This document shows, piece after piece, positions 1,650 to 13,767 of a stretch of 14,859 bases of DNA. Location of the stretch: IMG/VR virus record IMGVR_UViG_2675903606_000023, positions 1 through 14,859 of that record; one strand, 5' to 3'. The notes under the pieces are model-generated. The model did not search any database, was not told the origin of the DNA, and saw only the letters and a program-made list of their open reading frames with translations. The number at the start of each line of letters is the position of its first letter. The first letter of the stretch is position 1. The translations under genes and the position numbers were made by a program. This DNA is from a virus. Its lineage: Duplodnaviria; Heunggongvirae; Uroviricota; Caudoviricetes.

Positions 1650-1805
1650 GCCAAGCTCCTAAAACGTTTATCCGCGGCAGTGGCACCACACTTCAAACAT
1701 TCGTCTCACAATTTCGCGACAGTAGAAACCGTCAACATCTCGCGTCAGGTCATAGCGACTGCCATAACGCTGGTGGACCCATAGTTCAAATGCTTTATTC
1801 ACTCT

Positions 1806-2048
1806 TCACTTCCTTTTCATGGCGCGTAATTTTTTCAGGTGAGCTTCCTGCTCTGTTTCTGCCAGTATTTGTCGGTATTCCTGGTGATCAATATGTTCAA
1901 ACTGGTTGTTGAATTCACTGATGCGTACTCGACCGGAGTGTCCGTCCATGCGTCGAAAGAACACTGAGTGCTCAGTGCTGCGAGTAATCACCACAGGGTA
2001 TCCGGTCCTGTCCGTGTATATTTGCCCGCGTTGAATAAGTGTGAACAT
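1806..2048 (-). CDS. Hypothetical phage protein (80 aa from ATG at 2048; ORF is open up to 2081)
   Basis: ORF with GGGGA SD about 7 nt upstream of ATG at 2048, which lies 4 nt after the stop of the upstream gene; no recognisable family. Confidence 0.45.
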   Translation of the reverse strand: MFTLIQRGQIYTDRTGYPVVITRSTEHSVFFRRMDGHSGRVRISEFNNQFEHIDHQEYRQILAETEQEAHLKKLRAMKRK

Positions 2049-2052
2049 GTGG

Positions 2053-2682
2053 TTATCCCCAGCGGCAAATCGCAAAAACAATCAGCGCGATCGACATTGC
2101 AACACCAACAATTGCAAATGCATCAGGCCAGGTCATTGATTCACCTCCTGCGGCGGCTCTGGTAGCTGCATCCAGAACAAGGCGTTCCCTAACCACGATA
2201 AACATTCGCTCACTACAGCTTATCCAACCATCCGGAGTTACCGGAGAGTTGCCGGGTTCTTTAATGTGCAAGCGAGGCTCACCATCTTTTGGTTCAGGCC
2301 ACTGGCGCTTCATGTTGATCTTCAATTTATCTTCCATAGCAGCGGTAATTTCAGCATCACTGATACCAGCACGGCGCTGTGCATCCCACAACAGGAACTG
2401 CATATCAGCCCACTCGCTGAGATCGTCAGGTTCGGCTGCGGCTTCCAGAGCCTCTTTTGAGAGATGTTTCAGCGGACCAATGGGGCCAACGCAGCCAAAT
2501 GTGGAGTCAGACCATTTGGCATGCTCGTGGCGAATCTGTTCGCGTTCCAGTGATGCCAGTGCAATTTTTAATGCGGTAAGCATGTTGTTTTGATCTTCAT
2601 CAAGTCCGAACGGTATTTCATCCCGTGCTGACTCAATGCTGGTAATCGTTTTCTGTAGCCATTCTTTGGTAATAGTGGTCAT
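2053..2682 (-). CDS. Hypothetical early protein, DUF550/MazG-like N-terminal region (tentative) with C-terminal hydrophobic segment
   Basis: 209-aa ORF, AGGAG SD 7 nt upstream of ATG; start lies 2 nt after the stop of the Ea22-like gene; C-terminal AFAIVGVAMSIALIVFAICRWG looks like a transmembrane anchor. The DUF550 assignment is recollection only. Confidence 0.5.
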   Translation of the reverse strand: MTTITKEWLQKTITSIESARDEIPFGLDEDQNNMLTALKIALASLEREQIRHEHAKWSDSTFGCVGPIGPLKHLSKEALEAAAEPDDLSEWADMQFLLWDAQRRAGISDAEITAAMEDKLKINMKRQWPEPKDGEPRLHIKEPGNSPVTPDGWISCSERMFIVVRERLVLDAATRAAAGGESMTWPDAFAIVGVAMSIALIVFAICRWG

Positions 2683-2683
2683 C

Positions 2684-3028
2684 TCACTCTCCTTCTATGC
2701 GAATACCAGCAGCAGTCAGTGCTGCATTGACCTCATCAGCGTAGTAGTACGTTAATCCACTTGATGATTTAGCCAGCTTGAATGGTTCTGGTAACTTCAC
2801 TGTGCGGGACTCCTGTTCGTCGATACGCTGTTTTGCTTCCTCCAGTTCATCCAGCAAATCAGCGATAATATCCACTTCACGATGACGGATTTCTCTCTTA
2901 AACGCAGCCAAAGCTGCATCACAATCCTGCTCAGCATTTGGACTGTCTGGATTTTCCTGATACCACGCCAGCGTCGATTGATAGTTTTGTGCCGCCTCAC
3001 GCAATGCCTGATAGTCAATCTTGCTCAC
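2684..3028 (-). CDS. Ead/Ea22-like protein
   Basis: 114-aa ORF starting at GTG with AGGAGG SD 6 nt upstream; N-terminal MSKIDYQALREAA... resembles lambdoid Ea22/Ead-like proteins; position between xis and the immunity region matches the lambda ea22 location. Confidence 0.55.
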   Translation of the reverse strand: MSKIDYQALREAAQNYQSTLAWYQENPDSPNAEQDCDAALAAFKREIRHREVDIIADLLDELEEAKQRIDEQESRTVKLPEPFKLAKSSSGLTYYYADEVNAALTAAGIRIEGE

Positions 3029-3329
3029 TGGCTGCCTCCTTTGCCGGGATTTCTAACTTTTGAGTGGTTGTATCAAATTCAAACAACTTAACCACGTCAT
3101 CAAACAGGACATAATCACCATCAGGATCTTCAGTCATATCTGCGCCACAATCCTGACCGCACGAGTCGCAACCATCCATATCAAGCTCGTATCGCTTCAG
3201 GTTTGCGATATTTGATAAATTCAGCGCCAGTACAGCCAGGTCATAAACCTCTTCGGCAGTGACATCGCTGTTCAGTCCCATTTCATGGCGATATATGATT
3301 TTTTCTACTCGTTGTTTTGTGATCGTCAT
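3015..3329 (-). CDS. Hypothetical acidic phage protein (start uncertain: TTG 3353, ATG 3329 or ATG 3281)
   Basis: ORF 3015..3353; the ATG at 3329 has an AAGAG/GGAG SD-like purine stretch upstream; 3' end overlaps the Ea22-like start by 14 nt; acidic, Cys-containing C-terminal half. Confidence 0.45.
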   Translation of the reverse strand: MTITKQRVEKIIYRHEMGLNSDVTAEEVYDLAVLALNLSNIANLKRYELDMDGCDSCGQDCGADMTEDPDGDYVLFDDVVKLFEFDTTTQKLEIPAKEAASEQD

Positions 3330-3600
3330 TTTTCTCTTCACTCCGATATACAAGGATTACTACACCCCCTCTGCTGATTGCGCGAGCTGGATCCCCTGGT
3401 TCCATGCCGTCAATTCCGAAGGCTTCGGAAAACGCATTCATTGCCTTCTGGCGTTCATCCTGCTTACGGCGTTTATTCCATTTTTTCAGGAACAACAGCG
3501 ACAGCCACCGTCCGCTGCAGAACACGATGTAAAAATAACCAAGGAGCGCCAGGCCGACATTCAGGGCCGTTTCTATGGTTAGTTGTGAGTCAGTTGCCAT
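3283..3600 (-). CDS. Small putative membrane protein (single N-terminal transmembrane helix, basic juxtamembrane segment)
   Basis: 105-aa ORF; N-terminal hydrophobic stretch LTIETALNVGLALLGYFYIVFCSG followed by KKWNKRRKQDERQK; overlaps neighbouring genes at both ends. Confidence 0.45.
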   Translation of the reverse strand: MATDSQLTIETALNVGLALLGYFYIVFCSGRWLSLLFLKKWNKRRKQDERQKAMNAFSEAFGIDGMEPGDPARAISRGGVVILVYRSEEKNDDHKTTSRKNHISP

Positions 3601-3838
3601 TTCTTACCTGTTTAAGTAACTGGTTGAACATAACACTTAGGGGATTGCTGTATCCAAACGGCAGATTGTTTACGCAGTACAGAATCATTTTGTTTTTTTC
3701 TCCAGTTCGTACTATTAACCCATTCCACAATAACCGTGATAATTCATTACTGATAGAAGTTGCGCTTCTTCCAAGTGCGAGGGATATATCTTCTCTACTG
3801 CAATCTGGATTTTCCTGGATATACTCGATAACGGTCAT
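3590..3838 (-). CDS. Small hypothetical protein with helix-turn-helix-like segment
   Basis: ORF 3590..3880; the ATG at 3838 has an AAGGGA SD about 6 nt upstream and lies just after the stop (3849) of the upstream gene; SREDISLALGRSATSISNELSRLL resembles a winged-helix recognition region. Confidence 0.5.
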   Translation of the reverse strand: MTVIEYIQENPDCSREDISLALGRSATSISNELSRLLWNGLIVRTGEKNKMILYCVNNLPFGYSNPLSVMFNQLLKQVRNGN

Positions 3839-3848
3839 GTGGTCCCTT

Positions 3849-4430
3849 TTACTTAATATCTGTTTCGGATTGCATGCCATGAGTATTCATTTCGTTAATA
3901 ATTTCATCCAGAAGGATTTCAAGCCCTTCTCGACCCATATCTGAAAGAATGAAACCTTTATCAGGGGAAGTAGTGAGCATTTTCTGATAAAGAAACAGCG
4001 CTCTTCCCATTCCTTCAGCTTCGCCGTATTTTTGAATTAAATTCCATTCAATATACTGTTGTAAGGCAAATCGAATGGGGCCGGGATATATCGTCATAAA
4101 CCCATACATCCCGTTATATACCACGGCGTGTTCAGTTGTTCCGTGTTCATTCAGGATATCAATTGTGCCGTTCTTGTCTTCTTCTTCGTTGATGAATGCC
4201 GTCACATACAACCATCGCCACTGAGCAACCTTCATCTCAACCGGAAGTTTACCCAGTAATCCTGCTTCGTCGGCTTGCGCCAGACACTGAAGGATACGTA
4301 AACCTCGCACATTAGGAGTATCGAATTCTCCGGCATCCAGACGACGTATGGCGTCGTGATAATCAATCGTCATACTGCCAGTTCGTATACCATTGGCTGT
4401 TGCTTCAGCCTGGAATTCATCGTATTGCAT
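3849..4430 (-). CDS. Hypothetical phage protein (193 aa), function unknown
   Basis: Long ORF with GAGGAA SD about 9 nt upstream of ATG at 4430; coding-like composition; no family recognised by eye. Confidence 0.55.
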   Translation of the reverse strand: MQYDEFQAEATANGIRTGSMTIDYHDAIRRLDAGEFDTPNVRGLRILQCLAQADEAGLLGKLPVEMKVAQWRWLYVTAFINEEEDKNGTIDILNEHGTTEHAVVYNGMYGFMTIYPGPIRFALQQYIEWNLIQKYGEAEGMGRALFLYQKMLTTSPDKGFILSDMGREGLEILLDEIINEMNTHGMQSETDIK

Positions 4431-4435
4431 GATAT

Positions 4436-4630
4436 TTATTCCTCATCTTCATCTTCATCTTCATCTGCTGGTGCAATAACGTCATATCCTGCCTTTTCTG
4501 CAATAAACAGGAATGTTGAAAGAGTTCCTACAAGTTCATCGTCATGAACATGGCGAATGAATATTACTTTCCCGTTTTTGATGGTCAGCAATATTCTGGT
4601 TTGTTCGTGTTCTGCTGTTTTCTGATGCAT
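4436..4630 (-). CDS. Small protein with poly-acidic C-terminal tail (…ADEDEDEDEE)
   Basis: 64-aa ORF, GGGAGA SD 6 nt upstream of ATG at 4630; the C-terminal tail is encoded by the (TCATCT)x4 repeat at 4443..4466. Confidence 0.5.
   Translation of the reverse strand: MHQKTAEHEQTRILLTIKNGKVIFIRHVHDDELVGTLSTFLFIAEKAGYDVIAPADEDEDEDEE
4443..4466. repeat. Hexanucleotide tandem repeat (TCATCT)x4 encoding an alternating Asp/Glu tail
   Basis: Four perfect tandem copies read directly from the sequence, in frame at the 3' end of the 64-aa ORF. Confidence 0.9.
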
Positions 4631-4632
4631 TA

Positions 4633-4746
4633 TTATCTCCCGTATGCTTTACGCAGAAATAAGCAGGCAATATGCATGTAATTTTCACCGTATTGTGCAA
4701 TAAGGCAGGCGGTCTTGTGTGATGCCATATTCTTTATAAAAGTCAC
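4633..4746 (-). CDS. Candidate small ORF (37 aa from GTG 4746; 31 aa from ATG 4728), not in the supplied ORF track
   Basis: GGAGG (4758..4754) lies 7 nt upstream of GTG at 4746; the reading frame runs to a TAA at 4635..4633, 2 nt before the ATG of the 64-aa gene. Translation: VTFIKNMASHKTACLIAQYGENYMHIACLFLRKAYGR. Confidence 0.25.
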   Translation of the reverse strand: MTFIKNMASHKTACLIAQYGENYMHIACLFLRKAYGR

Positions 4747-4824
4747 AATAAAGCCTCCTGTGGATTAAGGTTGTAACAATCCCCGGCGATAAAACCGCAA
4801 TAAACGTTCAGGGCATATTTGTTG

Positions 4825-5190
4825 TTATTGCGCTAATTCTTTTTCGGCAGCAGCTTTTGTATACTCACATGCAAAACTCAGAATTTCGCTGCCGAGTGTT
4901 TTCGTTTCGTGATTACTGGACATATGTAATACCTGTGTTGCATGCAATAAATGATAAACATTTACCGCAAATGAATCAGGCTCCAGACAAATGCCTTCGT
5001 AATTATCTTGCTGTGAGGTTGTTTCTGTCATTGCTCCTGAAGTGCATGCGAGCCTGTTTTTGACAATTCTCTTTTCTCTAATCACTATATCGGCAACATC
5101 TATTGCCTTTACAACCTCCGGGAGAAGTTCCGGGTTTGTATAATCAAAGTCATCAACATGGAGAACAGTTATGTTTTCGAACTTTTTCAT
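4825..5190 (-). CDS. Hypothetical phage protein (121 aa), function unknown
   Basis: ORF with AGGAAG SD about 4-5 nt upstream of ATG at 5190; no recognisable family. Confidence 0.55.
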   Translation of the reverse strand: MKKFENITVLHVDDFDYTNPELLPEVVKAIDVADIVIREKRIVKNRLACTSGAMTETTSQQDNYEGICLEPDSFAVNVYHLLHATQVLHMSSNHETKTLGSEILSFACEYTKAAAEKELAQ

Positions 5191-5318
5191 GGCTTCCTCA
5201 GCTGACTTATATGTTCTGCTATATAGCGAGTCTCAGAAGTGTTTTCATATTGAGACTGTTTCCGCAATGATTGATAAAAATGTTCGCATGTACCTTGAAG
5301 GGCGAAGCGGCGATTATG

Positions 5319-5867
5319 TCACCATTGGTATTGGTTCTTCCGCAGAAGAGCTTCGCGAGATAAGGGGCAAACTTGTTGAGATGCGTCATGGTGTTGCTGC
5401 TCCTCACTTTTTGGTTGCTCCGGAGGAGTAACCTCACCAGTTAACAGGCACATCGGATCGCAGCCAAGAATATTTGCCAGTGGGATAAGCATACTGATAG
5501 TTGGTTCATACTCTCCGCTCTCCCACTGGATGATAATTTCTTCATCGAGATCGAGCAGCCTGGCGAGTTCGGCGGTTGTTAAGCCGCAGGCTTCGCGTTG
5601 GGTGCGAAGGTTAACCAGCCAGCTTTCAGGGAAGGATTGTTTTTGTTGTGCAGGAGAAGCAGCAGATAGAGCATATTCATGGATAAATTCCATTACCTCA
5701 ATGCCCAGTTCCTTTGAGCGAGCACAATCCAGAAGATGGAATGTGCGTACAGCACTTAGCAAATTTGCAATATTTAATGCAAAGGAATCAAGTTCTAAGC
5801 CCTTAAGCGTAACACAGCCGCAGTTGATAAAATTAGTTGTTTCTGGAGTTGCTTTTAGTGTCTTCAT
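5319..5867 (-). CDS. Protein with C-terminal XRE-family helix-turn-helix domain and uncharacterised N-terminal domain (ORF open to TTG at 5897)
   Basis: HTH_XRE-like segment LRTQREACGLTTAELARLLDLDEEIIIQWESGEYEPTISMLIPLANILG in the C-terminal half; ATG at 5867 has a GGCGGA SD-like element upstream; first gene downstream of the PL-like promoter. Confidence 0.6.
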   Translation of the reverse strand: MKTLKATPETTNFINCGCVTLKGLELDSFALNIANLLSAVRTFHLLDCARSKELGIEVMEFIHEYALSAASPAQQKQSFPESWLVNLRTQREACGLTTAELARLLDLDEEIIIQWESGEYEPTISMLIPLANILGCDPMCLLTGEVTPPEQPKSEEQQHHDASQQVCPLSREALLRKNQYQW

Positions 5868-5920
5868 ATATCCGCCAACAATTTTAAATTGAATCAAATC
5901 AAGTTATAATTGATGGTGCG

Positions 5921-5949
5921 ATATTATGTTTTGGGAAACAGGCTGTCAA
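5921..5949 (-). promoter_or_regulatory. Candidate leftward early promoter (PL-like): -35 TTGACA, 17-bp spacer, -10 TAATAT
   Basis: Minus strand reads TTGACA (5949..5944), a 17-nt spacer, then TAATAT (5926..5921); flanked by two TCAA-N7-TTGA inverted repeats (5898..5914 and 5946..5960) that could be repressor operators. Confidence 0.55.
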
Positions 5950-5978
5950 GAAAAAATTGATATCGTATATTTCAGGCA

Positions 5979-6003
5979 GAAAAAAAACGGGCAAAGCCCG
6001 TTA
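5979..6003 (-). terminator. Rho-independent terminator downstream of cI
   Basis: On the minus strand: 7-bp stem AACGGGC/GCCCGTT with a 3-nt loop (6003..5987), followed by a run of 8 U; begins 10 nt after the cI stop codon. Confidence 0.75.
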
Positions 6004-6013
6004 AAATCAAAGA

Positions 6014-6703
6014 CTAACCAAATCTGTTTATGTTGAATGGTACTGATGAGATCACTTTAGACTGGATATAAAGCAGAGCTAACCCCTCTTTTTCGATGCT
6101 CCATGGTTGATAATTGGGGTTATCAGATAACACCATGATTTTGCTTCCAATTTTTTGAAGCCTTTTCACGTAGCATTCTCCATCAAAACAAAATGCATAA
6201 ATACCATCGCCATCAAAATAAGTTACTGTCTTATCAAGAAAAAGAAGGTCGCCAGGTGAGATTGTGGGAGCCATACTGTCTCCTCTGGCGTTACCTATTT
6301 CTATATTTTTGAATGCCCGATTTCCAACAAGACGTCGGGCATATTCAGGATCAAGTTCTATTGAGCGCACTACATCTATCAAGTCACCACGGACATGAGT
6401 TCCATCACCGCAACTAAACTCAACATCAAGGACATTAAATACGACGCTATCTGTTCTTGTCTGGTGTTTCTCTTGCGAAGAAAAGGTTGGTGAGGAGTCT
6501 TCACCTAAGAACCAGGATTGTGGATAACCGCTAATCTCTGATAAATGCGCGAGCTTATCACTCCGTGGAAATGTTTTTCCTGTTGTCCAGTACTGCACTG
6601 ATTGCGCACTCACACCTAACTTGCGGGCCAGTTGAGCCTGAGTCCATCCTTTTGCTTTCAGCATCGCGGCTATTCGATTTTCCGTGTTTTTGACGTTCTT
6701 CAT
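6014..6703 (-). CDS. cI: CI-like prophage repressor (N-terminal HTH, C-terminal S24 LexA-like peptidase domain)
   Basis: N-terminal HTH (RIAAMLKAKGWTQAQLARKLGVSAQSVQYW); C-terminal autocleavage motifs GDSMAPTI (Ser) and YVKRL (Lys); AGGA SD 7 nt upstream of ATG at 6703 (ORF open to TTG at 6709); divergent from a Cro-like gene. Confidence 0.85.
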   Translation of the reverse strand: MKNVKNTENRIAAMLKAKGWTQAQLARKLGVSAQSVQYWTTGKTFPRSDKLAHLSEISGYPQSWFLGEDSSPTFSSQEKHQTRTDSVVFNVLDVEFSCGDGTHVRGDLIDVVRSIELDPEYARRLVGNRAFKNIEIGNARGDSMAPTISPGDLLFLDKTVTYFDGDGIYAFCFDGECYVKRLQKIGSKIMVLSDNPNYQPWSIEKEGLALLYIQSKVISSVPFNINRFG

Positions 6704-6709
6704 GACCAA

Positions 6710-6836
6710 ATCCTGTGGGTTTCTTTACAAGGATAAATCTTTACTTGATTTTAGTGTATTCGATCCTTTTGCAACTTGCATGTTAATTTAAACTTGATGT
6801 ATTCTTGATTTATAAAGTTAATATTGGTGCTTTGTT
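6710..6836. promoter_or_regulatory. Divergent cI/cro intergenic control region (OR/PR/PRM equivalent) with repeated CTTGAT motifs
   Basis: 127-bp AT-rich spacer between divergent cI and cro-like genes; CTTGAT occurs at 6744..6749, 6793..6798 and 6804..6809 (the last two 11 bp apart); candidate -35/-10 hexamers present but not uniquely assignable by eye. Confidence 0.6.
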
Positions 6837-7127
6837 ATGGAAGGAAATGATTACGACAAACTTCGTGCATTAATTGCGCAAAATGCCATAGCGCGAAATC
6901 TTGGTGTGACGCCGCAAGCGGTGAATCAGTGGTTTTCAAAAAGCACAATTCCTGCTCGTTTCGTTTTACGAGTATGTGAAGTAGTTGCATGGAAGGTTAC
7001 GCCTCATGGCTTAAGGCCAGATCTTTATCCTCACCCTGAAGATGGAATTCCTAACTTGTTACGCAAAAGCCTAAATCCAAGTTCACCACACAGAGCGGAT
7101 GGAATACACGCAGGAGATAAACAATGA
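6837..7127 (+). CDS. Cro-like transcriptional regulator (YdaS/Cro-type HTH)
   Basis: 96-aa ORF divergent from cI; HTH segment IARNLGVTPQAVNQWFSKSTIP; pattern resembles the YdaS-type Cro analogues of Rac-like prophages. Confidence 0.7.
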   Translation: MEGNDYDKLRALIAQNAIARNLGVTPQAVNQWFSKSTIPARFVLRVCEVVAWKVTPHGLRPDLYPHPEDGIPNLLRKSLNPSSPHRADGIHAGDKQ

Positions 7128-7831
7128 ACACCGCAATTTTTAACGGCAAAGCATCCATGACCAGCGTTGAGATCGCAGAGCTGGTGGGAAGCCGACCAGA
7201 TAGTGTTAAGAGAACTATTGAAACACTGGCTAAAAAGGGAATCATCCAATTTCCACAGACTGTGGAAATTGAGAATAAACAATCACTTGGGCCTCGCCGA
7301 TTTTCTAGCGCGTATGTATTCGAAGGTGAACGAGGTAAGCGCGACAGCATCATTGTCGTCGCACAGCTCTGTCCTGAATTCACTGCTCGCCTGGTAGATC
7401 GCTGGCGCGAACTGGAAGAACAGATCCGTAAGCCAATGAGCGAAATCGAAATGGTTGCCGCGATGGCTCTTGAAGCAGTTCGTCAGCAGAAACGGATCAC
7501 TCAGGTGGAAGAAAAAGTCAGCCACGTTGCTGAAACAGTCGAGCAAATTAAAAAGGGCACTATTCGTGAGGGCTATGCCGGATATCGCCAACTGAAAGCA
7601 AAAACCGGTTTGTCAGATGATAAATGCCGCAATCTGGTGAACGCCTATCAGATTCCTACAGACACCCATGAGTTCATGACGCCGGACGGATTGTTGTCAC
7701 GTCGCGCAATTGTTGCTGTGGAACCGTTTATGGCTGCTTTTTATCGGGTTATGGAGGAAGCAGAACCGCGAGGGACTCGCTGGTATCACCCGAAAATGGG
7801 GTTATTTCAGGTTATTGGTTGGCAGCGGTGA
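7124..7831 (+). CDS. Phage regulatory protein with Rha/antirepressor-like N-terminal DNA-binding region (tentative)
   Basis: 235-aa ORF whose ATG overlaps the cro-like stop (ATGA at 7124..7127); GGAG SD 8 nt upstream; N-terminal SVEIAELVGSRPDSVKRTIETL resembles the Rha-family HTH signature. Confidence 0.55.
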   Translation: MNTAIFNGKASMTSVEIAELVGSRPDSVKRTIETLAKKGIIQFPQTVEIENKQSLGPRRFSSAYVFEGERGKRDSIIVVAQLCPEFTARLVDRWRELEEQIRKPMSEIEMVAAMALEAVRQQKRITQVEEKVSHVAETVEQIKKGTIREGYAGYRQLKAKTGLSDDKCRNLVNAYQIPTDTHEFMTPDGLLSRRAIVAVEPFMAAFYRVMEEAEPRGTRWYHPKMGLFQVIGWQR

Positions 7832-7854
7832 AAAAAAGCCGGGAGTAACCCGGC
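7831..7854 (-). terminator. Hairpin with U-tract on the minus strand (antisense-oriented intrinsic terminator) abutting the stop codon of the 235-aa gene
   Basis: GCCGGG (7838..7843), loop agtaa, CCCGGC (7849..7854); the plus strand has A7 immediately 5' of the stem (7831..7837), so the canonical U-tract is on the minus-strand transcript. Confidence 0.5.
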
Positions 7855-8053
7855 TCACTCAACATCAATAACGGGGAGCTGTTTCGCATAAAACGGCTCC
7901 GAAACATCCAAGAACAGTTCTAAAGATATCAGCAGCTATATGATCATTTCAAGACCAAATATTGATTCTGCAATTTCGGGACGTTACACTGTCTCCGCAC
8001 CTTATAAAGCGGGTGCCGGGGGTCGCAGCCCGGAATTGTCAACGGCGATATAT

Positions 8054-8073
8054 GACGCGCCAGCGTCTTTTTT
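8054..8073 (+). terminator. Candidate weak rho-independent terminator (tR1-like position)
   Basis: GACGC-gcca-GCGTC 5-bp GC-rich stem with tetraloop, followed by T6 (8068..8073), in the untranslated spacer downstream of the 235-aa regulator. Confidence 0.4.
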
Positions 8074-8239
8074 ATCGTCCGCGCTCACGCACGCCAGAAT
8101 TATGGTGGGCTGGGCAGGGGAGCCGAAAGGCTCGCCGGTCTCCGTTGACGCCGGTACTGCGAACCCTGTTCAGTCTGCCACCAGTGAGTTTCGCAGCTCC
8201 GGTGGTGGAAGTTTTCCACAGTCAACGGAGGCTGCCATC

Positions 8240-8602
8240 ATGGCTACTGTCCCAACTTCCCCATACCTGAAAATTGAAGTTGTCAACGGCAAGGCCGTTA
8301 TTTTCTCCCTGCATGTTGCCTGCCACTTTAAGCGAATGCACCAGAACATCGTTGACAAAATCGAGTATCTGAACTGCTCACGCGAGTTTTTTACCCGCAA
8401 TTTCATACCGGGTACTTATCACATCTACGGTGACTCCCTGCGTGGTTATTACATCACTCTTGATGGCCTGATGATGCTTCAGCTTGGGTTAAGTCTGCGC
8501 ACAATGCGGTACTACGAGAGCTGCATTGAGGCATTCCATGAAGCTGAAACCAGCCTGAATCATACAGCTTTCCGCTGTAATCAATGGGAGGTGCGCCCAT
8601 GA
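8240..8602 (+). CDS. Rha-family phage regulatory protein (120 aa from ATG 8240)
   Basis: GGAGG SD 8 nt upstream of ATG at 8240; segments FKRMHQNIVDKIEYL and YHIYGDSLRGYYITLDGLMMLQLGLS match the Rha-family pattern as I remember it. The upstream in-frame extension to 7940 has non-coding-like composition and no SD. Confidence 0.55.
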   Translation: MATVPTSPYLKIEVVNGKAVIFSLHVACHFKRMHQNIVDKIEYLNCSREFFTRNFIPGTYHIYGDSLRGYYITLDGLMMLQLGLSLRTMRYYESCIEAFHEAETSLNHTAFRCNQWEVRP

Positions 8603-8832
8603 TTCGCCGCCTCGTTAATTCTCTGTATCACCGATACAACCGTTGCCCCCGTGTGGGGCAGTGGTTCGCCACCAGCGACGGTCGCGTTCTGCGGGTTTGC
8701 CTGGTCAGCACCGAAAGCCAGAAAGTTGTGTGTGAATTACTGGGGCGTAACTACACCATCAGTTACCCACTAGTGGCGTTTCAGTCCGGAAAAATGTTTA
8801 AACGCCTGGGAGGTGGCTATGCGTCCGTCTGA
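8599..8832 (+). CDS. Small hypothetical protein (77 aa)
   Basis: ATG at 8599 overlaps the stop of the preceding gene (ATGA) and is preceded by GGGAGG at a 7-nt spacing; Cys- and Arg-rich; no family recognised. Confidence 0.45.
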   Translation: MIRRLVNSLYHRYNRCPRVGQWFATSDGRVLRVCLVSTESQKVVCELLGRNYTISYPLVAFQSGKMFKRLGGGYASV

Positions 8833-9712
8833 TCTTCTGCTCGATTTTGGGCATCCGGTTGCTTATTACCCTGGGCTCGTTAAATACATGGGAAGTCCGC
8901 ACGCTGTTATTTTCTTTGGTCAGATTTTTTACTGGCAGGATAAAGCACATGCAGCGGAAGGCGTACATAAAACGCGTGAAGAGATACAACACGAAACCGG
9001 ACTTACATTTGAACAACAGGCTGTAGCGCGTAAGCATCTTGTGTCCAGAGGCATTTTGGTTGAAACCAACAAGCGTCTTGAGCACAAAATGTTCTACCGT
9101 ATAGATTGTGAGCGCCTTAATGAAATTATCAATGAAAACAATCAGTTTTCCCGAAATGGGGAAACCCGTTTTCGGGAAACTGTAAAACCCAATTTCGCGG
9201 AGGAGGGAAAGCCTTCACCGCGGACACGGGAAACCCCTCGCCGCGGTGAAGGGAAAACCAATTTCGATCTTACAGAGAATACAACAGAGATTACTTCAGA
9301 GAGTACTACAGAGAGTAAAAACACTATTGGCGCATCCGCTGACGCGTCTGCACCAGCGCGTTCTGCCCGACAGGAATATTCACCGGAATTTGAACAGGCA
9401 TGGCAGGAATATCTCAAACGTGCTGGTGGCAATTCCAAGTCAGCAGCCTTCAAAGCCTGGAAAGCACGTATCAGGGAGGGAATAAAACCGGAGAACATGC
9501 TTGATGGCGTGAAGCGGTATGCCGCCTGGGTGCGTGTCTCTGGAAATACCGGTACCCAGTTCGTGAAGCAGGCGTCGACGTTCTTTGGACCCGATCGTCA
9601 TTTCGAGGAATCCTGGCAACAGCCAGCAGCCCCCGGAGGTGGGCGGGGCAAAAGCCTCCCGATCTCGGGATTCAGTGAACAGGACTACGGCTCAACGAAC
9701 TTCAACTGGTGA
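8819..9712 (+). CDS. Replication initiator / replisome organiser (lambda O-like functional position) with internal origin-like repeats
   Basis: GGGAGG SD 5 nt upstream of ATG at 8819 (ORF open to GTG at 8813); N-terminal winged-helix-like region; low-complexity linker encoded by iteron-like DNA (9147..9316); followed by a DnaC-like loader and DnaB-like helicase. Confidence 0.7.
   Translation: MRPSDLLLDFGHPVAYYPGLVKYMGSPHAVIFFGQIFYWQDKAHAAEGVHKTREEIQHETGLTFEQQAVARKHLVSRGILVETNKRLEHKMFYRIDCERLNEIINENNQFSRNGETRFRETVKPNFAEEGKPSPRTRETPRRGEGKTNFDLTENTTEITSESTTESKNTIGASADASAPARSARQEYSPEFEQAWQEYLKRAGGNSKSAAFKAWKARIREGIKPENMLDGVKRYAAWVRVSGNTGTQFVKQASTFFGPDRHFEESWQQPAAPGGGRGKSLPISGFSEQDYGSTNFNW
9147..9316. 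repeat. Iteron-like repeat cluster (GGGAAAC-type repeats and palindromes) followed by ACAGAGA-type repeats: candidate replication origin inside the initiator gene
   Basis: GGGAAA(A/G)C at 9159, 9174, 9205, 9228 and 9251; palindromic arms TTTTCCCGAAA/TTTTCGGGAAA and CACCGCGG/CCGCGGTG flank two of the copies; ACAGAGA-like repeats at 9271..9316. Confidence 0.55.
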
Positions 9713-9731
9713 TTTTGTGGGGAGGGTGAAA

Positions 9732-10622
9732 ATGACTAATTTCCTGAACAAACAACACATGCAACACGACAAAGCGCAGTTACTTAACCGCAAGGCAGAC
9801 CTGGAAGAGGAGCTGGCATTTGTCCGTGGCGGAAAGCGTCCGTGGCGCTGTGAGCATTGGGTGCAAAGCACTGAGACGGTGTCCTGCGGGAAACACGGAA
9901 AATACACGCGCTATGTGCTGACTGGCCCGGATGTAAGGGGGAAAGCTGTCAAACGGGTGTCCGGTTGCCTGTCCTGCCTCAGTGAGGAGCTGGGCCGCGT
10001 GTATGACGAATTACGCGCCCTGAAGGTTCGTGAATTACTCGATCAGGCCGGTATTGCCCGCCGGTTCCAGGACTGTGAGTTTGAGAATTATCAGGCGGTG
10101 AATACTGACGCACAGAAAAACCTTGAAGCCTGTCAGCGCTATGCCGCTTCCTGGAAGAAATGTCTCGCTGCAGGCACCAGCATGGTCATGATTGGCAATT
10201 GTGGTACCGGTAAAAATCACCTGGCTGTATCAATGGCAAAAAATATTATTCGCCACCACCAGGCAACCATAGAAATCACGGATGTAATGCGGCTTACCCG
10301 TGCGGTGAAAAATACCTGGCGCCACAACTCTGAGCGCACTGACGATGAAGTGATTAATCATTTTGCATCGCTGGATCTGCTTATCATCGATGAGGTTGGT
10401 GTGCAGTTCGGTACGCCTGCGGAGATAACCATCCTGCAGGAAATCATAAATGCGCGTTACGAAAGCGTTTTACCGACAATTTTGATCAGCAACCTGACGT
10501 TTGAACAGCTTAAGGAATCCATTGGTGAACGGATTGTGGATCGCGTTACTGATGGTGGGCGTAACTGCCTGGTGTTTGGTTGGGAAAGCTACCGCGCGCA
10601 TATCAGAGGTGTGGCAGCATGA
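9732..10622 (+). CDS. DnaC-like helicase loader (IstB/DnaC-family AAA+ ATPase) with N-terminal Cys-rich zinc-ribbon-like region
   Basis: Walker A GNCGTGKNHLA and Walker B LLIIDEVG; Cys cluster CEHW..CGKHG..CLSCL; GGAGGG SD 5 nt upstream of ATG at 9732 (ORF open to 9585). Confidence 0.8.
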   Translation: MTNFLNKQHMQHDKAQLLNRKADLEEELAFVRGGKRPWRCEHWVQSTETVSCGKHGKYTRYVLTGPDVRGKAVKRVSGCLSCLSEELGRVYDELRALKVRELLDQAGIARRFQDCEFENYQAVNTDAQKNLEACQRYAASWKKCLAAGTSMVMIGNCGTGKNHLAVSMAKNIIRHHQATIEITDVMRLTRAVKNTWRHNSERTDDEVINHFASLDLLIIDEVGVQFGTPAEITILQEIINARYESVLPTILISNLTFEQLKESIGERIVDRVTDGGRNCLVFGWESYRAHIRGVAA

Positions 10623-12019
10623 CAAACCCGACAAATCCGGCGTGGCGTAATGATGACCTGGAAGGAGCTGTCATCGGTGCGTTTTTTCTGCGTGGGGCTG
10701 ATCCGGAAGTGATGGATATTCTGGCCACGCTTCCGGCGGATGTCTTTTTCGTGCGTCAGTACAGGGATATTTACGCGGGAATTTGCAGACAGGCCCGTGT
10801 ATCCGGCGTCATTGACCCCGTACTGCTGTGCAATGAGATGCCGGAACTTGCCCCGGTGATTACCGACACCGGACGCAAAACCTGGGTGAAGTCTTCACTG
10901 GAGCACTATGTCGCAGCGTTGCGGCGTAATGCCGTACTGCGCGATGCAGAAAAAACACTGACTGAAGCATTACAGAATTTACGTGATGCGTATACCTGTG
11001 AAGCAGCCGAGGATGCCCTGAAGGATGCGCAGAACATGATGGCCTCACTGTCGACCGGAAAGGGCGTCATTCAGCCGGTTCACATTGATGATGTCCTTCC
11101 AGAAGTGGTCGACCGTGTTGAATGCCGCAATCAGGGACTGGAGAAATCCAGGGCGCTGATGACCGGTATTGATGAGCTGGACGCAAAAACGGGCGGTATG
11201 GAGCCAGGCGACCTGGTATTCATTGCGGCTCGTCCTTCGATGGGGAAAACCGAACTTGCGCTGGATATCATCGACAAGGTGACTGAGCAGGGGCATGGCG
11301 TGCTTCTGTTCACCATGGAGATGGCGAACATTCAGATTGGTGAACGTATGGTGTCTGCTGCCGGGGGAATGCCGGTATCCCGTCTTAAGTCAGTTGCCCG
11401 TTTTGAAGACGAAGACTGGGCACGTTTCTCACAGGGCGTGGGACGAATGACGGGGCGTAATATCTGGATGGTGGACCAGGCAAACCTGACCATTGATGAG
11501 ATATGTGCAACTACGAGGCACCACCGGATGAAACACCCGGAAACGGCGCTGGTGGTGGTCGATTACCTCGGCCTGATTAAAACCCGCAGCATGGGGCGTC
11601 ACGACCTTGCTGTGGGGGAAATCTCAAAGGGACTAAAAAGCCTGGCAAAATCCGGCGGTTTTCCGCTGATTGCTCTGAGCCAGCTCTCCCGCGGTGTGGA
11701 ATCCAGACCCAATAAACGCCCCATGAACTCGGACCTGAAAAACTCAGGGGAAATAGAGGCGGATGCAGACATCATTCTGATGCTTTACAGGGATGAGGTG
11801 TACAACCCGGAGACACAGGCGAGAGGCATAGCAGAAATCAACATCACGAAACAGCGTAATGGTACGCTGGGTACCATTTACCGGCGTTTTCATAACGGGC
11901 ATTTTCTGCCTGTGGACCAGGAGAGTGCCCGGGTTCTTTCCACTCCCATGACGCCGGGCAATCCGCGCAGATACAGCAATAACCGCATGTCGGGTAGTAA
12001 AACGGAGCGTTTATTTTGA
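10619..12019 (+). CDS. DnaB-like replicative DNA helicase
   Basis: 467 aa from ATG at 10619, which overlaps the loader stop (ATGA); DnaB-type N-terminal domain and RecA-like C-terminal domain with Walker A ARPSMGKTELAL and Walker B-like VVVDYLGLI. Confidence 0.9.
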   Translation: MTNPTNPAWRNDDLEGAVIGAFFLRGADPEVMDILATLPADVFFVRQYRDIYAGICRQARVSGVIDPVLLCNEMPELAPVITDTGRKTWVKSSLEHYVAALRRNAVLRDAEKTLTEALQNLRDAYTCEAAEDALKDAQNMMASLSTGKGVIQPVHIDDVLPEVVDRVECRNQGLEKSRALMTGIDELDAKTGGMEPGDLVFIAARPSMGKTELALDIIDKVTEQGHGVLLFTMEMANIQIGERMVSAAGGMPVSRLKSVARFEDEDWARFSQGVGRMTGRNIWMVDQANLTIDEICATTRHHRMKHPETALVVVDYLGLIKTRSMGRHDLAVGEISKGLKSLAKSGGFPLIALSQLSRGVESRPNKRPMNSDLKNSGEIEADADIILMLYRDEVYNPETQARGIAEINITKQRNGTLGTIYRRFHNGHFLPVDQESARVLSTPMTPGNPRRYSNNRMSGSKTERLF

Positions 12020-12273
12020 ACAACAGAACAACCACTGTTTCACCGGAACAACTTCGTCGGCAGGCGCAGGAGATGCTTCGTTGTGCTGAACAGATGGAAA
12101 AAACGAGCGTGAAAAAAGATACGCTCCGCAAGCAGCTTACTCCGGCGCTTCGTGATCTGCTGCAGGCAAAACACCGCACACAAAAGGCGGTGGATGAGCT
12201 GGTGGATTGCGTGGCGGAACTGGAAGGACAGGTAAGCCAGTTTGAAATACTGGTGAAGGAGTTTACTGCGTGA
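12016..12273 (+). CDS. Hypothetical coiled-coil protein (85 aa), TTG start overlapping the helicase stop
   Basis: TTG at 12016 overlaps the TGA of the helicase gene (TTGA); GGAG 8 nt upstream; charged, helix-rich composition. Confidence 0.45.
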   Translation: MNNRTTTVSPEQLRRQAQEMLRCAEQMEKTSVKKDTLRKQLTPALRDLLQAKHRTQKAVDELVDCVAELEGQVSQFEILVKEFTA

Positions 12274-12318
12274 TGGCTGAATTTTTTCTTCTGCGCTCAT
12301 GCAATACCGTTCGCTGAG

Positions 12319-13314
12319 GTGACCGTGAGAGCACTACTGACCCCTGAAATTGCCCCGCGTATGGGGATCGTATTGTTCAGGCCCGGTTCAGAGCTGATGC
12401 CCCTGTTTATGCAGGGGCGTGTCCTGCTGGAGCCTGAGCCGGAACGTTATTCATCTTTTGCCAGTGGTGCCGTTCCGGCGGCATCACAACCGCTGGCGGA
12501 TGATCCTGCCGTTCGGGCCGTGTTCCGCAATGAGGCAGTGATCCGTCGTGCTGGTGGCGTGGAATGTCTTGAAAGCTGGTTACTTCGTGAAAAGGGCTGT
12601 CAGTGGCCTCATTCCAACTGGCACAGCGAGAACATGACCACAATGCGACACGCTCCGGGCGCAATCCGTCTGTGCTGGCACTGCGATAACCAGCTGCGCG
12701 ATCAGTTCACGGAACGGCTGGAATCAATGGCAACGGATAACTGTGCCCGCTGGGTGTTGTCTGTTGTGCGTCGGGATCTCGGTTTTGATGACAGTCACGT
12801 TGTGACAATGCCGGAACTGTGCTGGTGGCTGGCTCGTAATGACCTGGCTGATGCCTTACCGGAAAGTGCAGCCCGTAAGGCACTGAGATTACCGAAGCCT
12901 GTTGTGCCGTCTGTCACCCGGGAGAGTGACCTTGTTCCTTCGGTTCCTGCCACCAGCATTATCCAGGATAAAGCGAAAAAGGTGCTGGCGCTGAAAGTGG
13001 ATCCAGAGTCGCCGGAGTCTTTTATGTTACGCCCAAAACGTCGTCGCTGGGTTAATGAAAAGTACACGCGCTGGGTTAAGACACAGCCGTGTGCATGTTG
13101 TGGTAAGCCAGCCGACGATCCTCATCACCTGATTGGTCATGGTCAGGGTGGAATGGGTACAAAAGCGCATGACCTTTTTGTGTTGCCTTTGTGCAGAAAA
13201 CACCATGACGAACTGCATGCGGATACCGTGGCATTTGAAGAGAAGTATGGTTCCCAACTGGAGCTGATATTTCGTTTTATCGATCGCGCGCTGGCGATTG
13301 GTGTGCTGTCCTGA
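12319..13314 (+). CDS. DUF968-like protein with C-terminal HNH-like Cys/His motif (putative nuclease); start uncertain
   Basis: 331-aa ORF from GTG at 12319; C-terminal CACCGKPADDPHHLIGHGQGGMGTKAHDLFVLPLCRKHHDELH; located immediately upstream of Q, as in Qin-type prophages. Confidence 0.6.
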   Translation: MTVRALLTPEIAPRMGIVLFRPGSELMPLFMQGRVLLEPEPERYSSFASGAVPAASQPLADDPAVRAVFRNEAVIRRAGGVECLESWLLREKGCQWPHSNWHSENMTTMRHAPGAIRLCWHCDNQLRDQFTERLESMATDNCARWVLSVVRRDLGFDDSHVVTMPELCWWLARNDLADALPESAARKALRLPKPVVPSVTRESDLVPSVPATSIIQDKAKKVLALKVDPESPESFMLRPKRRRWVNEKYTRWVKTQPCACCGKPADDPHHLIGHGQGGMGTKAHDLFVLPLCRKHHDELHADTVAFEEKYGSQLELIFRFIDRALAIGVLS

Positions 13315-13331
13315 TTTTGTGGAGAAAGTTG

Positions 13332-13712
13332 ATGCGTGATATTCAGATAGTTCTTGAACGCTGGGGGGCATGGGCTGCAAGTGGTAACACCGGGGTGGAC
13401 TATTCTCCGATCGCTGCCGGATTCAAAGGACTTTTACCATCTGCCACTAAACCACGTCCGGCCTGCTGCGATGATGACGGACTTATCATTGAAAACTGTC
13501 TTGCTCGTCTGAAGCAGAAAAAACCTGAGGAGTATTCGCTTCTCATTGCTCATTATTTGTTGCGAATATCAAAAAGACAGATAGCCAGGACGAGAAAGAA
13601 AAGCGAAAAAGCAATACGAATTGAGATGCAGATAGCCGAAGGGTTTATTGACGGATGTTTGTCTGTGCTGGGGGTAAGACTGGAGATGGACGACTGGCTG
13701 CTAAAAAAGTAA
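13332..13712 (+). CDS. Late-gene antitermination protein Q (QuuD-like family)
   Basis: 126 aa from ATG at 13332 (GGAG SD 7 nt upstream; ORF open to TTG at 13317); MRDIQIVLERWGAWAA...IAAGFKGLL...CCDDD...EGFIDGCLSVLGVRLEMD matches the QuuD-type Q pattern from memory. Confidence 0.6.
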   Translation: MRDIQIVLERWGAWAASGNTGVDYSPIAAGFKGLLPSATKPRPACCDDDGLIIENCLARLKQKKPEEYSLLIAHYLLRISKRQIARTRKKSEKAIRIEMQIAEGFIDGCLSVLGVRLEMDDWLLKK

Positions 13713-13767
13713 AAAATGATTAGTGCGGTCCGCAAAAAGTATGTCAGTATGTTAAGAGTGGTTACTT

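Follow-up and report, generated by a model that had tools for sequence, protein, structure and literature searches.

A probable IsrK–C4-type RNA immunity cassette upstream of a Rha-like gene among the early rightward genes of a lambdoid prophage

Introduction

In the early rightward operon of this lambdoid prophage, what is encoded by the interval that separates a 235-aa regulator gene from the next gene start, ATG 8240, and that has an Ant/Rha-type gene on one side and the replication genes on the other? The window analysed here is the whole stretch of 14,859 nt (positions 1 to 14,859 of IMG/VR record IMGVR_UViG_2675903606_000023, Caudoviricetes), in which this interval occupies 7832-8239. 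A first-pass annotation, made from the letters alone, had described an untranslated, GC-rich spacer of 385 bp with a terminator-like hairpin on each strand, and had likened its geometry to that of the lambda OOP antisense RNA and the tR1 terminator.

The c4 antisense RNA of P1/P7 immI was reportedly described by Citron and Schuster in 1990, and the P4 immunity region, ordered seqA – CI RNA (seqB) – seqC, is said to be the work of Forti, Sabbattini, Ghisotti and Dehò. The P1/P7 immI operon comprises the c4 antisense RNA, icd and ant1/2 (PMC8198154), and in Salmonella Typhimurium the Gifsy-1 prophage carries the isrK–orf45(STnc1160)–anrP locus (Hershko-Shalev et al. 2016; PMC4825925). IsrK and C4 have been equated with the seqA and CI RNAs of P4, and are present in lambdoid prophages (PMC3632133, PMC10111431). 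Our analysis suggests that the plus strand of 7959-8239 is very probably an IsrK–C4 RNA immunity cassette of the type of P1/P7 immI c4, P4 seqA–CI–seqC, N15 CA and Gifsy-1 IsrK/STnc1160. Such systems are already known, including in lambdoid prophages; this is a well-known kind of phage RNA switch and the find is therefore an ordinary one.

Results

The interval measures 408 nt, not 385, and comparison with homologues shows it to be a mosaic of two unrelated pieces that join at a break in homology near 7959; the homology common to most phages starts at about that position. Its GC content (53.4%, against 47.9% for the window) is raised, as had been claimed, but the excess is confined to 7959-8239 (58%; 62.5% within C4), and 7832-7958 has only 43%. 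The sequence features listed in the first-pass annotation are all present: the GGAGG that supports ATG 8240 as the next start lies 8 nt before it, a minus-strand hairpin with a T7 tract abuts the regulator stop codon (TGA 7829-7831), and the plus-strand GACGC/GCGTC hairpin (8054-8067) is followed by T6 (8068-8073). It is their interpretation that needs revision, and the earlier account is partly supported. Within 6700-8700, terminator-like sites number seven, against 2.0±1.5 in shuffled sequence, while promoter-like sites show no enrichment (two observed, 2.4 in shuffles); a scan of the window for tRNA and tmRNA genes found none. The features discussed below are collected in Table 1.

Table 1. 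Features of the interval and its borders (window coordinates)
Feature	Position	Strand	Detail
Intrinsic terminator	7829-7856	-	GAGCCGGG-UUACU-CCCGGCUU + U7; stem 7836-7856, 8 pairs, 6 G-C, loop 5; scan
Candidate ~86-nt leftward small RNA (predicted)	7831-7916	-	conserved 5' motif GUUCUUGGAU, class-specific middle hairpin, terminator
Promoter-like site	7923-7952	-	-35 TTGAAA, 18 nt, extended -10 TGaTATCTT; 9/12 with TG; back to back with P_isrK
In-frame open extension ('ash family' frame)	7940-8239	+	spans promoter, IsrK, C4 and leader; continues into 8240-8602
Predicted promoter P_isrK	-35 7962-7967; -10 7985-7990; start ~7997 (inferred)	+	TTGATT, 17-nt spacer, TACACT; sequence reading
IsrK-like sRNA (P4 seqA / P1 a1b1 equivalent)	7997-8073	+	Rfam RF01394, 77 nt
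IsrK hairpin 1	7997-8002/8011-8016	+	6/6 pairs with double changes
IsrK hairpin 2	8017-8020/8029-8032	+	loop holds a1
a1 decoy site	8023-8028	+	UCGCAG; in loop of IsrK hairpin 2
b1 decoy site	8038-8045	+	GUCAACGG; inside IsrK
IsrK terminator	8054-8058/8063-8067, U6 8068-8073	+	scan; 3' end of Rfam isrK match
C4-type antisense RNA	8098-8185	+	Rfam RF01695
C4 outer stem	8103-8119/8164-8180	+	8/17 pairs with double changes
C4 hairpin 1	8120-8124/8129-8133	+	4/5 pairs with double changes
C4 hairpin 2	8134-8138/8151-8155	+	1/5 pairs with double changes
b'	8138-8149	+	hairpin-2 loop plus last base of its 5' arm
a'	8157-8163	+	CUGCGAA; single-stranded segment of C4
tRNA-like 3' CCA	8181-8183	+	after C4 outer stem
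a2 target	8190-8196	+	UUCGCAG; leader; 7 pairs with a'; inverted repeat I1
b2 target	8221-8232	+	GUCAACGGAGGC; contains SD GGAGG 8227-8231; inverted repeat I3, 10/10
Proposed regulated gene: 120-aa Rha-like regulator / antirepressor-type protein	8240-8602	+	Pfam, PHROG

Two Rfam matches adjoin each other on the plus strand of the right-hand piece. The isrK model is matched over its full length (1-77/77) with 58.7 bits, against a gathering score of 50, and the C4 model, likewise over its full length (1-87/87), with 78.8 bits against 45; the c4-a1b1 model reaches only 18.5 bits on the a1/b1 region, under its gathering score of 46.7, and the isrK model fits better there. The C4 fold has 27 pairs in three helices, a long outer stem enclosing two hairpins, which are 99.6-100% paired, and the CC at 8181-8182 is invariant in 61 sequences. 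Regulatory and antisense-type RNA in the spacer, which had been suggested, is thus borne out by Rfam and by the covariation described below, but the main RNAs lie on the plus strand and not on the minus strand. ATG 8240 with its SD likewise stands as the genuine start and as the one that would be under control.

The promoter that we predict upstream of IsrK matches the consensus at 8 of 12 positions, a weak match that the consensus scan missed and that counts against the cassette. Five divergent lineages share its geometry (-35 TTGAYN, 17 nt, -10, then 6 variable nt ahead of the first hairpin), and the Gifsy-1 isrK promoter is experimentally required (PMC4825925). No operator for a repressor was identified at P_isrK; a search of the cI–cro intergenic region gave no repeats, so that it offers nothing to compare with P_isrK.

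Covariation among related phages, which had been proposed as a check on the spacer, is found both in the stems and in the three sets of a/b sites across 57 distinct homologues. In these, the intramolecular stems are paired in 98.6% of cells, with double changes at 19 of 42 pairs, whereas partners slid out of register are paired in 34-47%. Between a'/b' and the leader sites a2/b2, pairing stands at 93.9%, with 13 of 19 pairs co-varying and a covariation score of 0.547 (≤0.124 when slid); between a1/b1 and a'/b' of C4, 96.5% of cells are paired, 12 of 14 pairs co-vary and the score is 0.736 (≤0.143 when slid). Across the 57 distinct homologues there are 9 a' cores, with which a2 co-varies, and 13 b' cores, with which b2 co-varies, in 21 combinations that include 7 four-gamete quartets. 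Cognate b'/b2 runs are 8-13 nt long, non-cognate ones average 4.1, and 2% of non-cognate pairs reach the cognate minimum of 8. In the window itself b' and b2 form 12 contiguous pairs, and in the minimum-free-energy structure of 7997-8245 the b'–b2 and a'–a2 pairings both form in cis (z = -5.6). The locus belongs to the IsrK–C4 family, with its RNA folds and with a three-way complementarity that co-varies.

Other readings of the same DNA had to be weighed against the IsrK–C4 cassette. The hairpin at 8054-8073 had been taken for a tR1-like terminator, and the spacer for a possible antitermination site; on that reading the hairpin, or a nut-type element of which it forms part, would gate early rightward transcription into the replication genes. 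It does sit between cro-proximal genes and O-like, DnaC-like and DnaB-like genes, so that early-promoter transcripts must pass it, and the homologous P4 system works via premature termination (PMC4825925, PMC3632133). We give this reading little credence: the hairpin is IsrK's own terminator, conserved as the 3' end of the isrK match with compensatory stem variants and served by a conserved promoter of its own that lies 57 nt upstream, and a search for boxA-like sequence in 7800-8300 gave no match (the nearest, at 7735-7743, has one mismatch, and the count is below chance). A second reading makes the interval protein-coding, with ATG 7940 as the start of a 220-aa 'Ash family' protein (ASH and Rha domains) and the RNA-family hits as incidental. 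Public annotation agrees with it: PGAP, under the name 'ash family protein', and GenBank depositors give 7940-8602 as one CDS, as in the annotation of Stx2a phages and of an E. coli genome with 99.9% identity, and the translation of 7940-8239 matches Pfam Phage_ASH (PF10554; 52.5 bits against a cutoff of 26; residues 16-99, nt ~7985-8236) and, as the 7940 frame, PHROGs 3960/995/821. The frame is without a stop in 59/59 variants, while the other two plus-strand frames hold 34 distinct stop positions; that none of the 34 distinct stop columns falls in the 7940 frame has a probability of ~1e-6 if the thirds were equal, and the same is true of the IsrK and C4 halves. Indels in the region are multiples of three. 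Elsewhere, tandem arrays included, the counterpart of ATG 7940 is served by a strong SD (GGGAGGTG or AAGGAGGTG) and makes an ATGA overlap with the stop of the preceding gene, and Gifsy-1 orf45, whose start corresponds in position to ATG 8102 (in the open 7940 frame, at the 5' edge of the C4 fold), is translated (PMC4825925). Nevertheless a protein in place of the RNAs seems to us improbable. Variation (entropy) by codon position is 0.57/0.58/0.52 in 7940-8239, without any periodicity, against the strong periodicity of the adjoining CDS at 8240-8602 (0.16/0.13/0.43); the 'residues' that vary coincide exactly with the a/b complementarity cassettes and with the compensatory stem changes; and ATG 7940 has no SD in the window and lies upstream of the internal promoter. 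In-frame stops do occur, with a TGA within IsrK in Stx2 phage F004 and four stops in the same frame in APSE-8, and family-wide about a quarter of distinct C4 loci close the 7940-type frame within 3-50 codons. The authors of the Gifsy-1 study also noted that orf45 is conserved at the nucleotide and not the amino-acid level (PMC4825925). The earlier description of this frame as non-coding-like, and of the spacer as untranslated, thus stands as far as periodicity and the missing SD are concerned, but has to be qualified for a frame that is open in 59/59 distinct homologues and that pipelines call as CDS; a conserved coding frame through 7940-8239 had been named as evidence against an RNA, and we find its openness conserved but no protein-like conservation. 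A sequence-specific protein domain without an RNA function is unlikely; in this clade, however, the cassette lies within an always-open ORF annotated as protein, a point against it, and some of this DNA may accordingly be translated as well. Long upstream 'open frames' of >1 kb (loci L060, L065, L070-L072 and L083) were of low complexity and were set aside as probable off-frame or antisense shadows or tandem modules, and a further locus (L034) seems to be joined to the Rha-235 gene through a frameshift; in no case did we infer a large fusion protein.

The left-hand piece, 7832-7958, raises the remaining alternative, that of the first-pass annotation, in which the functional product of the interval would be a short, OOP-like antisense RNA on the minus strand, starting at ~7915 and ending at the 7836-7856 terminator. 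In lambda, the overlap of OOP with the 3' end of cII extends over about 50 nt and leads to cleavage by RNase III. Here, a strong minus-strand terminator is preceded, at the right distance, by an extended -10 promoter-like site, found by the scan within the region (~7900..7980) for which a promoter search had been proposed. The terminator is kept, with loop and stem variants, in all loci having this filler. Though the spacer sequence differs, three sequence classes retain the -35, the 18-nt spacing and TGnTAT..T, and likewise the motif GTTCTTGGAT and the terminator, with the middle hairpin replaced, so that the architecture of the predicted RNA is conserved across classes A, B1 and B2. The RNA (~86-88 nt) folds at -28.8 kcal/mol (z = -3.5), and one stem variant (L015) pairs as G·U on the minus strand, where the plus strand has C·A. 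Like the unit in lambda, where it is proven, the element predicted at 7831-7952 is short and leftward, has its own promoter and terminator, and lies between the cII-position gene and the replication genes (PMC12197685). These observations make a ~86-nt leftward RNA from this piece plausible. As the functional product of the interval, it strikes us as possible but somewhat doubtful. It would explain 7832-7958 only, to which the OOP-like geometry is confined, and not the conserved RNA cassette; promoter-like hits are no commoner than in shuffles; and in class A the middle hairpin speaks for the plus strand, its non-Watson-Crick positions reading G·U there but A·C on the minus strand. The predicted RNA has no sequence similarity to OOP and would end at the regulator stop codon, overlapping only non-coding spacer; with the U-tract of its terminator at 7829-7835 and the end of the 235-aa ORF at 7831, it would overlap that coding sequence by at most the stop codon, and it therefore could not act as OOP does on cII. 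Rfam searches of the element at a permissive E-value gave no family match, only sub-threshold, terminator-driven hits (best sroD, 24.5 bits against a gathering score of 50), the conserved 5' motif has no other exact or near-exact site in the window, and the best non-self duplex in a search of the window for trans targets (-21.1 kcal/mol) is no better than shuffled seeds (-20.6). The best 80 homologues of the 235-aa gene include 76 with this filler (75 complete, one in a contig that ends inside it) and four with a different filler that lacks such an element, and in IMG/VR the isrK module follows each of the 90 matches to the combination of hairpin and motif. The partner of the element is therefore not separable. 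A small protein on the minus strand at 7831-7915 was also considered and rejected: its reading frame is offset differently from the terminator in class A than in B1, and B2 is without an ATG.

Discussion

We propose that the IsrK–C4 cassette acts as follows, by analogy with its homologues. Transcription from the internal promoter (TTGATT, 17 nt, TACACT) would begin at ~7997, and many transcripts would end at the 8054-8073 terminator to give the ~77-nt IsrK RNA, while read-through RNA would carry the C4 fold, from which RNase P and 3' trimming may release an RNA of ~80 nt (~8103/8104 to 8183). Processing of C4 and CI by RNase P has been described (PMC5499578), and the C4 precursor of this prophage is presumably cleaved likewise. 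The a' and b' segments of C4 could then pair with a2 and b2 in the leader, in cis before processing or in trans after it, hiding the SD of the 120-aa ORF and blocking its translation; by polarity, the same block may also lower expression of the downstream replication genes. IsrK carries decoy copies, a1 and b1, and might therefore titrate C4 or open the closed leader, turning translation on, as shown for Gifsy-1, whose IsrK is known to have short and read-through isoforms, to bind Hfq and to activate in trans (PMC4825925). The a/b sequences would set the specificity of immunity, and would be shuffled between phages. The published Gifsy-1 model stresses cis structure switching and activation by IsrK over classic C4 repression, which counts against our scheme to that extent.

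The unbroken 7940 frame might be accommodated in the same scheme. In the lambdoid clade of E. coli, Shigella and Salmonella, selection may keep the frame free of stops and not conserve it as protein, so that the transit of ribosomes, and not the peptide, would matter; we regard this idea as rather unlikely. On transcripts started upstream, that is early rightward, lytic ones, translation from a 7940-type ATG would unfold both C4 and the terminator of IsrK and carry ribosomes past the b2-blocked SD, overriding the RNA immunity, while on transcripts from the internal promoter the same sequence would be untranslated and fold into the immunity RNAs. If true, this would widen the translational coupling of Gifsy-1 orf45 to a whole-cassette switch set by the origin of the transcript.

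The comparison with Gifsy-1 was made by description, as a search of the phage collection did not find its sequence. Both loci, in lambdoid prophages, have a three-hairpin IsrK sRNA with its own leaky terminator and complementarity between IsrK and the leader, a structured C4-like RNA (there STnc1160) farther down the read-through RNA, an AUG that borders the C4 fold on its 5' side (there that of orf45, here ATG 8102), and an antirepressor-type gene downstream. They differ in that the orf45 equivalent is here fused in frame to the 8240 ORF (…ATC ATG GCT…), where Gifsy-1 has an AUGA overlap, and in that the frame is here also open upstream, through IsrK, to ATG 7940. The gene regulated here would be that of a 120-aa Rha-domain protein, and within the early right operon the cassette closely precedes the replication genes, whereas that of Gifsy-1 lies downstream of antQ.

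With P1/P7 immI, the cassette shares an antisense RNA and target made from the same strand and promoter, a C4 fold that presents a' and b', downstream a2 and b2 sites of which b2 covers the first ORF's ribosome-binding site, upstream a1 and b1 sites, a 3' end of the type of RNase P substrates, and a/b sequences that would set specificity, as in the heteroimmunity of P1 and P7. It has no icd or ant downstream, however, and a short Rha-domain protein in their place is a point against the assignment; no C1-type operator was identified at the promoter, the a1b1 region is a discrete, terminated sRNA (IsrK), and the host element is a lambdoid prophage and not a plasmid prophage. The cassette would work like immI but is not the P1 operon. 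The order of decoy or target, processed RNA and target, upstream of replication genes, is that of P4, whose seqA and CI relatives are detected by the Rfam isrK and C4 models (PMC10111431, PMC3632133), and the cassette has been described as situated 'within a Bro network gene' that Pfam matches to Phage_ASH (PMC10111431). The output differs, being premature transcription termination in P4 and, as we propose, SD occlusion here. A P4-like variant of the module, used as query in the phage collection, matched only the N15 cA locus and one E. coli phage.

The 120-aa ORF matches Pfam Phage_pRha (30.0 bits), PHROGs 995/821/518 and the antirepressor PHROGs 373/15204, and family names such as these suggest an antirepressor role. 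Its stop overlaps the ATG of the next ORF (8599) as ATGA; that ORF encodes 77 aa of unknown function and is followed by the replication genes. It is probably this antirepressor-type gene, close ahead of the replication genes, that the cassette controls, and the cassette therefore bears on prophage induction and, where Stx phages are co-resident, on their heteroimmunity. In this lambdoid prophage, a close relative of the Stx-converting phages, it would add a second layer to immunity, one that is based on RNA.

Cassettes homologous to this one are present in 331 phage records, and the surrounding 1.8-kb stretch of the window (7100-8900) has matches in 877 of 5426 complete E. coli genomes. EHEC O157 has a copy of the region at 92% identity, and Stx2_EH2201 is an example of a related Stx2a phage. 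The NCBI pipeline and most depositors label this DNA as protein ('ash family protein', 'antirepressor' or 'hypothetical'), and Pfam and PHROG profiles agree; despite these labels the conserved signal, to judge from sequence comparison, is RNA structure and RNA–RNA complementarity. The mix-and-match a/b cassettes (9 × 13 cores, 21 combinations) and the tandem arrays make up a data set on how the specificity of RNA immunity diversifies. Two GenBank entries, LC710661 and LR794148, already annotate isrK and C4 ncRNAs followed by a CDS, in the same arrangement.

An IsrK–C4 immunity cassette upstream of the Rha-like gene

The interval between the stop codon of the 235-aa ORF and the ATG at 8240 (7832-8239) is mainly a plus-strand IsrK–C4 immunity cassette, and the OOP/tR1-type arrangement proposed for it in the first-pass annotation is not borne out. 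The cassette is a member of a known system, since two GenBank records already annotate isrK and C4 non-coding RNAs followed by a CDS, and its novelty is low. What the first-pass annotation described is partly confirmed, and its interpretation is supported in part. The window represents a lambdoid prophage's early region, with 99.9% identity to the E. coli B19374 prophage and roughly 95% to several Stx2a-converting phages; its 120-aa Rha-domain ORF is followed by a small ORF, an O-like initiator, a DnaC-like loader and a DnaB helicase. For the ORF 3′ of the Rha-like gene, ATG 8599 is the most likely start (SD GGGAGGTG 5 nt upstream; its ATGA overlaps the stop at 8600-8602), rather than the mechanically listed ATG 8584.

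To judge from alignment of upstream contexts, the interval, which is 408 nt long and not 385 bp as first stated, is two unrelated pieces with a boundary at about 7959. From there onward it is a widely shared module, the only part that most related phages match, and 7832-7958 is filler found only after this particular 235-aa gene. The earlier label "GC-rich" fits the module (58%) but not the filler (43%). The two hairpins and the SD that had been described are present (Table), and the supposed weak sense terminator exists as a hairpin with T6 and closes the isrK match at its 3′ side.

Coordinates of features in the window and, in the last three rows, of C4 copies in phage contigs
Feature	Position	Strand	Remark
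Integrase	75-1361	-	
S24/HTH repressor	6014-6709	-	
Cro/YdaS-like ORF	6837-7127		
235-aa Ant/Rha-type ORF	7124-7831		TGA 7829-7831
Hairpin, then T7	7836-7856	-	abuts the TGA
Promoter-like TTGAAA, 18 nt, TGaTATCTT	7952..7923	-	
P_isrK, predicted promoter	7962-7990	+	
Rfam isrK match	7997-8073	+	58.7 bits; gathering score 50
a1 (copy in IsrK)	8023-8028		
b1 (copy in IsrK)	8038-8045		
GACGC/GCGTC hairpin, then T6	8054-8067	+	
Rfam C4 antisense RNA match	8098-8185	+	78.8 bits; gathering score 45
b′ (exposed C4 segment)	8138-8149		target b2
a′ (exposed C4 segment), CUGCGAA	8157-8163		target a2
a2 (leader target), UUCGCAG	8190-8196		
b2 (leader target), GUCAACGGAGGC	8221-8232		
SD GGAGG	8227-8231		8 nt before ATG 8240
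120-aa Rha-domain ORF	8240-8602		3′ of interval
C4 copies, L090	9739, 10395, 11051		
C4 copies, L088	3667, 4323		
C4 copies, L191	4679, 5338		

Covariation, complementarity and probable mechanism

The isrK and C4 matches adjoin, both on the plus strand and both above the curated Rfam thresholds. Homologues were gathered through the downstream 120-aa protein (80 IMG/VR loci), so that their selection is independent of the interval itself, and 59 distinct upstream sequences were aligned with those of Stx2 phage F004 and Hamiltonella phage APSE-8. In this alignment 98.6% of cells in the isrK and C4 stems are paired, with both-side changes in 19 of 42 pairs; when partners are slid by 1-3 columns, pairing falls to 34-47%. 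Five divergent lineages share the promoter geometry (-35 TTGAYN, 17 nt, -10 TAnAnT or CACACT, 6 nt, first hairpin), with free variation in the 6 nt that precede the RNA start; the 3′ CC(A) of C4, which RNase P recognises, is invariant.

Two exposed C4 segments are each complementary to a downstream target and to an upstream copy inside IsrK, and the SD of ORF 8240 lies within b2. Against a2/b2, 93.9% of a′/b′ cells are paired and 13 of 19 pairs co-vary; the figures against a1/b1 are 96.5% and 12 of 14. Cognate b′/b2 runs are of at least 8 nt, non-cognate ones of 4.1 nt on average. Among the homologues, 9 a′ cores and 13 b′ cores make up 21 combinations; in seven quartets all four possible pairings occur, so a and b recombine. 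In the unprocessed transcript, the minimum-free-energy structure has both b′–b2 and a′–a2 pairing in cis (z = -5.6).

This architecture is common to four known systems, P1/P7 immI, c4–icd–ant (PMC8198154), P4 seqA–CI–seqC and N15 CA (PMC3632133, PMC10111431) and Gifsy-1 isrK–orf45/STnc1160–anrP (PMC4825925). By homology, transcripts from P_isrK would either end at 8073 as IsrK or continue past it; C4 would be excised from the read-through RNA, with RNase P making its 5′ end, and its pairing with a2/b2 would occlude the ribosome-binding site of the Rha-like gene. IsrK, carrying a1/b1, would turn translation on by titrating C4 or by opening the closed leader. Polarity on the replication genes, as in P4, may also occur, since the cassette lies directly upstream of them.

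Separately, CUGCCACCA (8175-8183), in which the 3′ strand of the outer C4 stem runs on into CCA, can alternatively pair with an invariant UGGUGG farther downstream (8203-8211), which is probably the counterpart of the Gifsy-1 alternative A/B structures. The 11-nt TTGTCAACGGC, identical to the b1 site (8036-8046), recurs at 8280-8290, as codons 14-17 of the regulated gene (…EVVNGK…), making a third site complementary to the b′ loop. Because loci with other b types conserve the peptide motif too, the repeat may be a coincidence, or else the source of this window's b specificity.

The open frame through the cassette

ATG 7940, ATG 8102 (which sits where Gifsy-1 orf45 starts) and ATG 8240 share one frame, and PGAP and most depositors annotate 7940-8602 as a single "ash family" or hypothetical protein; translation of the stretch from promoter to SD is matched by Pfam Phage_ASH and several PHROGs. 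The interval might then be the coding part of an "Ash" protein domain. The frame is indeed kept open: it has no stop in any of the 59 distinct variants, the other two plus frames averaging 4.1 and 1.3; none of 34 distinct stop-codon columns falls in it, in the IsrK half or the C4 half; its indels are multiples of three; and the corresponding ATG of tandem arrays is served by a strong SD and shares an ATGA with the stop before it. However, its variation by codon position has no periodicity (0.57/0.58/0.52; adjoining CDS, 0.16/0.13/0.43), and the "residues" that vary are those of the a/b cassettes and of compensatory changes in the stems. ATG 7940, which has no SD in this window, precedes the internal promoter, phage F004 has an in-frame TGA inside IsrK, APSE-8 has four stops, and in about a quarter of the 124 distinct C4 loci the frame ends within 3-50 codons. 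Gifsy-1 orf45 is reported to be translated, with nucleotides but not amino acids conserved, and to be needed only for coupling (PMC4825925).

Our reading is that the RNA function of the cassette is primary and universal, that the frame is additionally kept translatable in this clade, and that the "Ash" protein-family signal is largely a shadow of the RNA. The earlier term "untranslated" agrees with the lack of periodicity but not with a frame stop-free throughout these variants. PF10554, whose match covers about 7985-8236 (-10 box to SD), PHROGs 3960, 995 and 821, and the NCBI "ash family protein" are instances of the RNA cassette labelled as protein or domain; the 99.9% identical RefSeq genome carries no ncRNA annotation over the cassette.

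The left piece and a candidate leftward RNA

Of the terminators in the region the minus-strand one is the strongest; a promoter-like site on the same strand, about 70 nt to its right, stands back to back with P_isrK. Three filler sequence classes keep the -35, the 18-nt spacing, the extended -10, the motif GTTCTTGGAT and the terminator, each with a different middle hairpin, and the predicted 88-nt leftward RNA folds at -28.8 kcal/mol (z = -3.5). These features point weakly to the minus-strand RNA suggested earlier, which we regard as a weak candidate; unlike OOP on cII, it would overlap the regulator gene only at the stop codon. Promoter-like sites showed no enrichment over shuffles, searches gave no RNA-family match for the element and no trans target that stands out, and wobble evidence on the folding strand is contradictory between classes. 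In the loci compared, the element is always found together with both of its neighbours.

An alternative filler, about 190 nt long (L311-L313, L352, L050, L052, L073, L075; N-terminus of SfV orf37, L002 2177-2500), stands in place of the minus-strand element in some phages; in others it comes before the isrK module, with a different context upstream. Its translation in the ash frame is …GNTCKYSIAGSV.EGGV.STLYAGSLKHSG.F.CVMVI.MN.S.RCGC..VIL.SVKR…; this filler is well conserved and could be either protein or RNA.

Tandem arrays and unusual loci

In some phage contigs the whole promoter–IsrK–C4–Rha unit is repeated in tandem, with two or three copies spaced by 656-659 nt (L090, L088, L191); in others a first cassette is followed by only some 20 Rha codons and then by a second cassette, which is P4-like. 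Every array (these three and L056/L060/L065/L068/L069/L080) lies entirely within one open frame, and copies within one array differ in a/b type in those read (L056, L060, L065). The junction sequence at 8584-8602 also precedes the "ash" ATG in the arrays, and this identity suggests that it is a recombination joint of the module. A further observation concerns L034 (and L010-type loci) at some 1140 nt 5′ of the Rha ATG. The 3′ end of the 235-aa gene is, in L034, read in a different frame, which joins that gene, the filler and the ash frame into a single open frame of 500 codons, probably through a frameshift or sequencing error.
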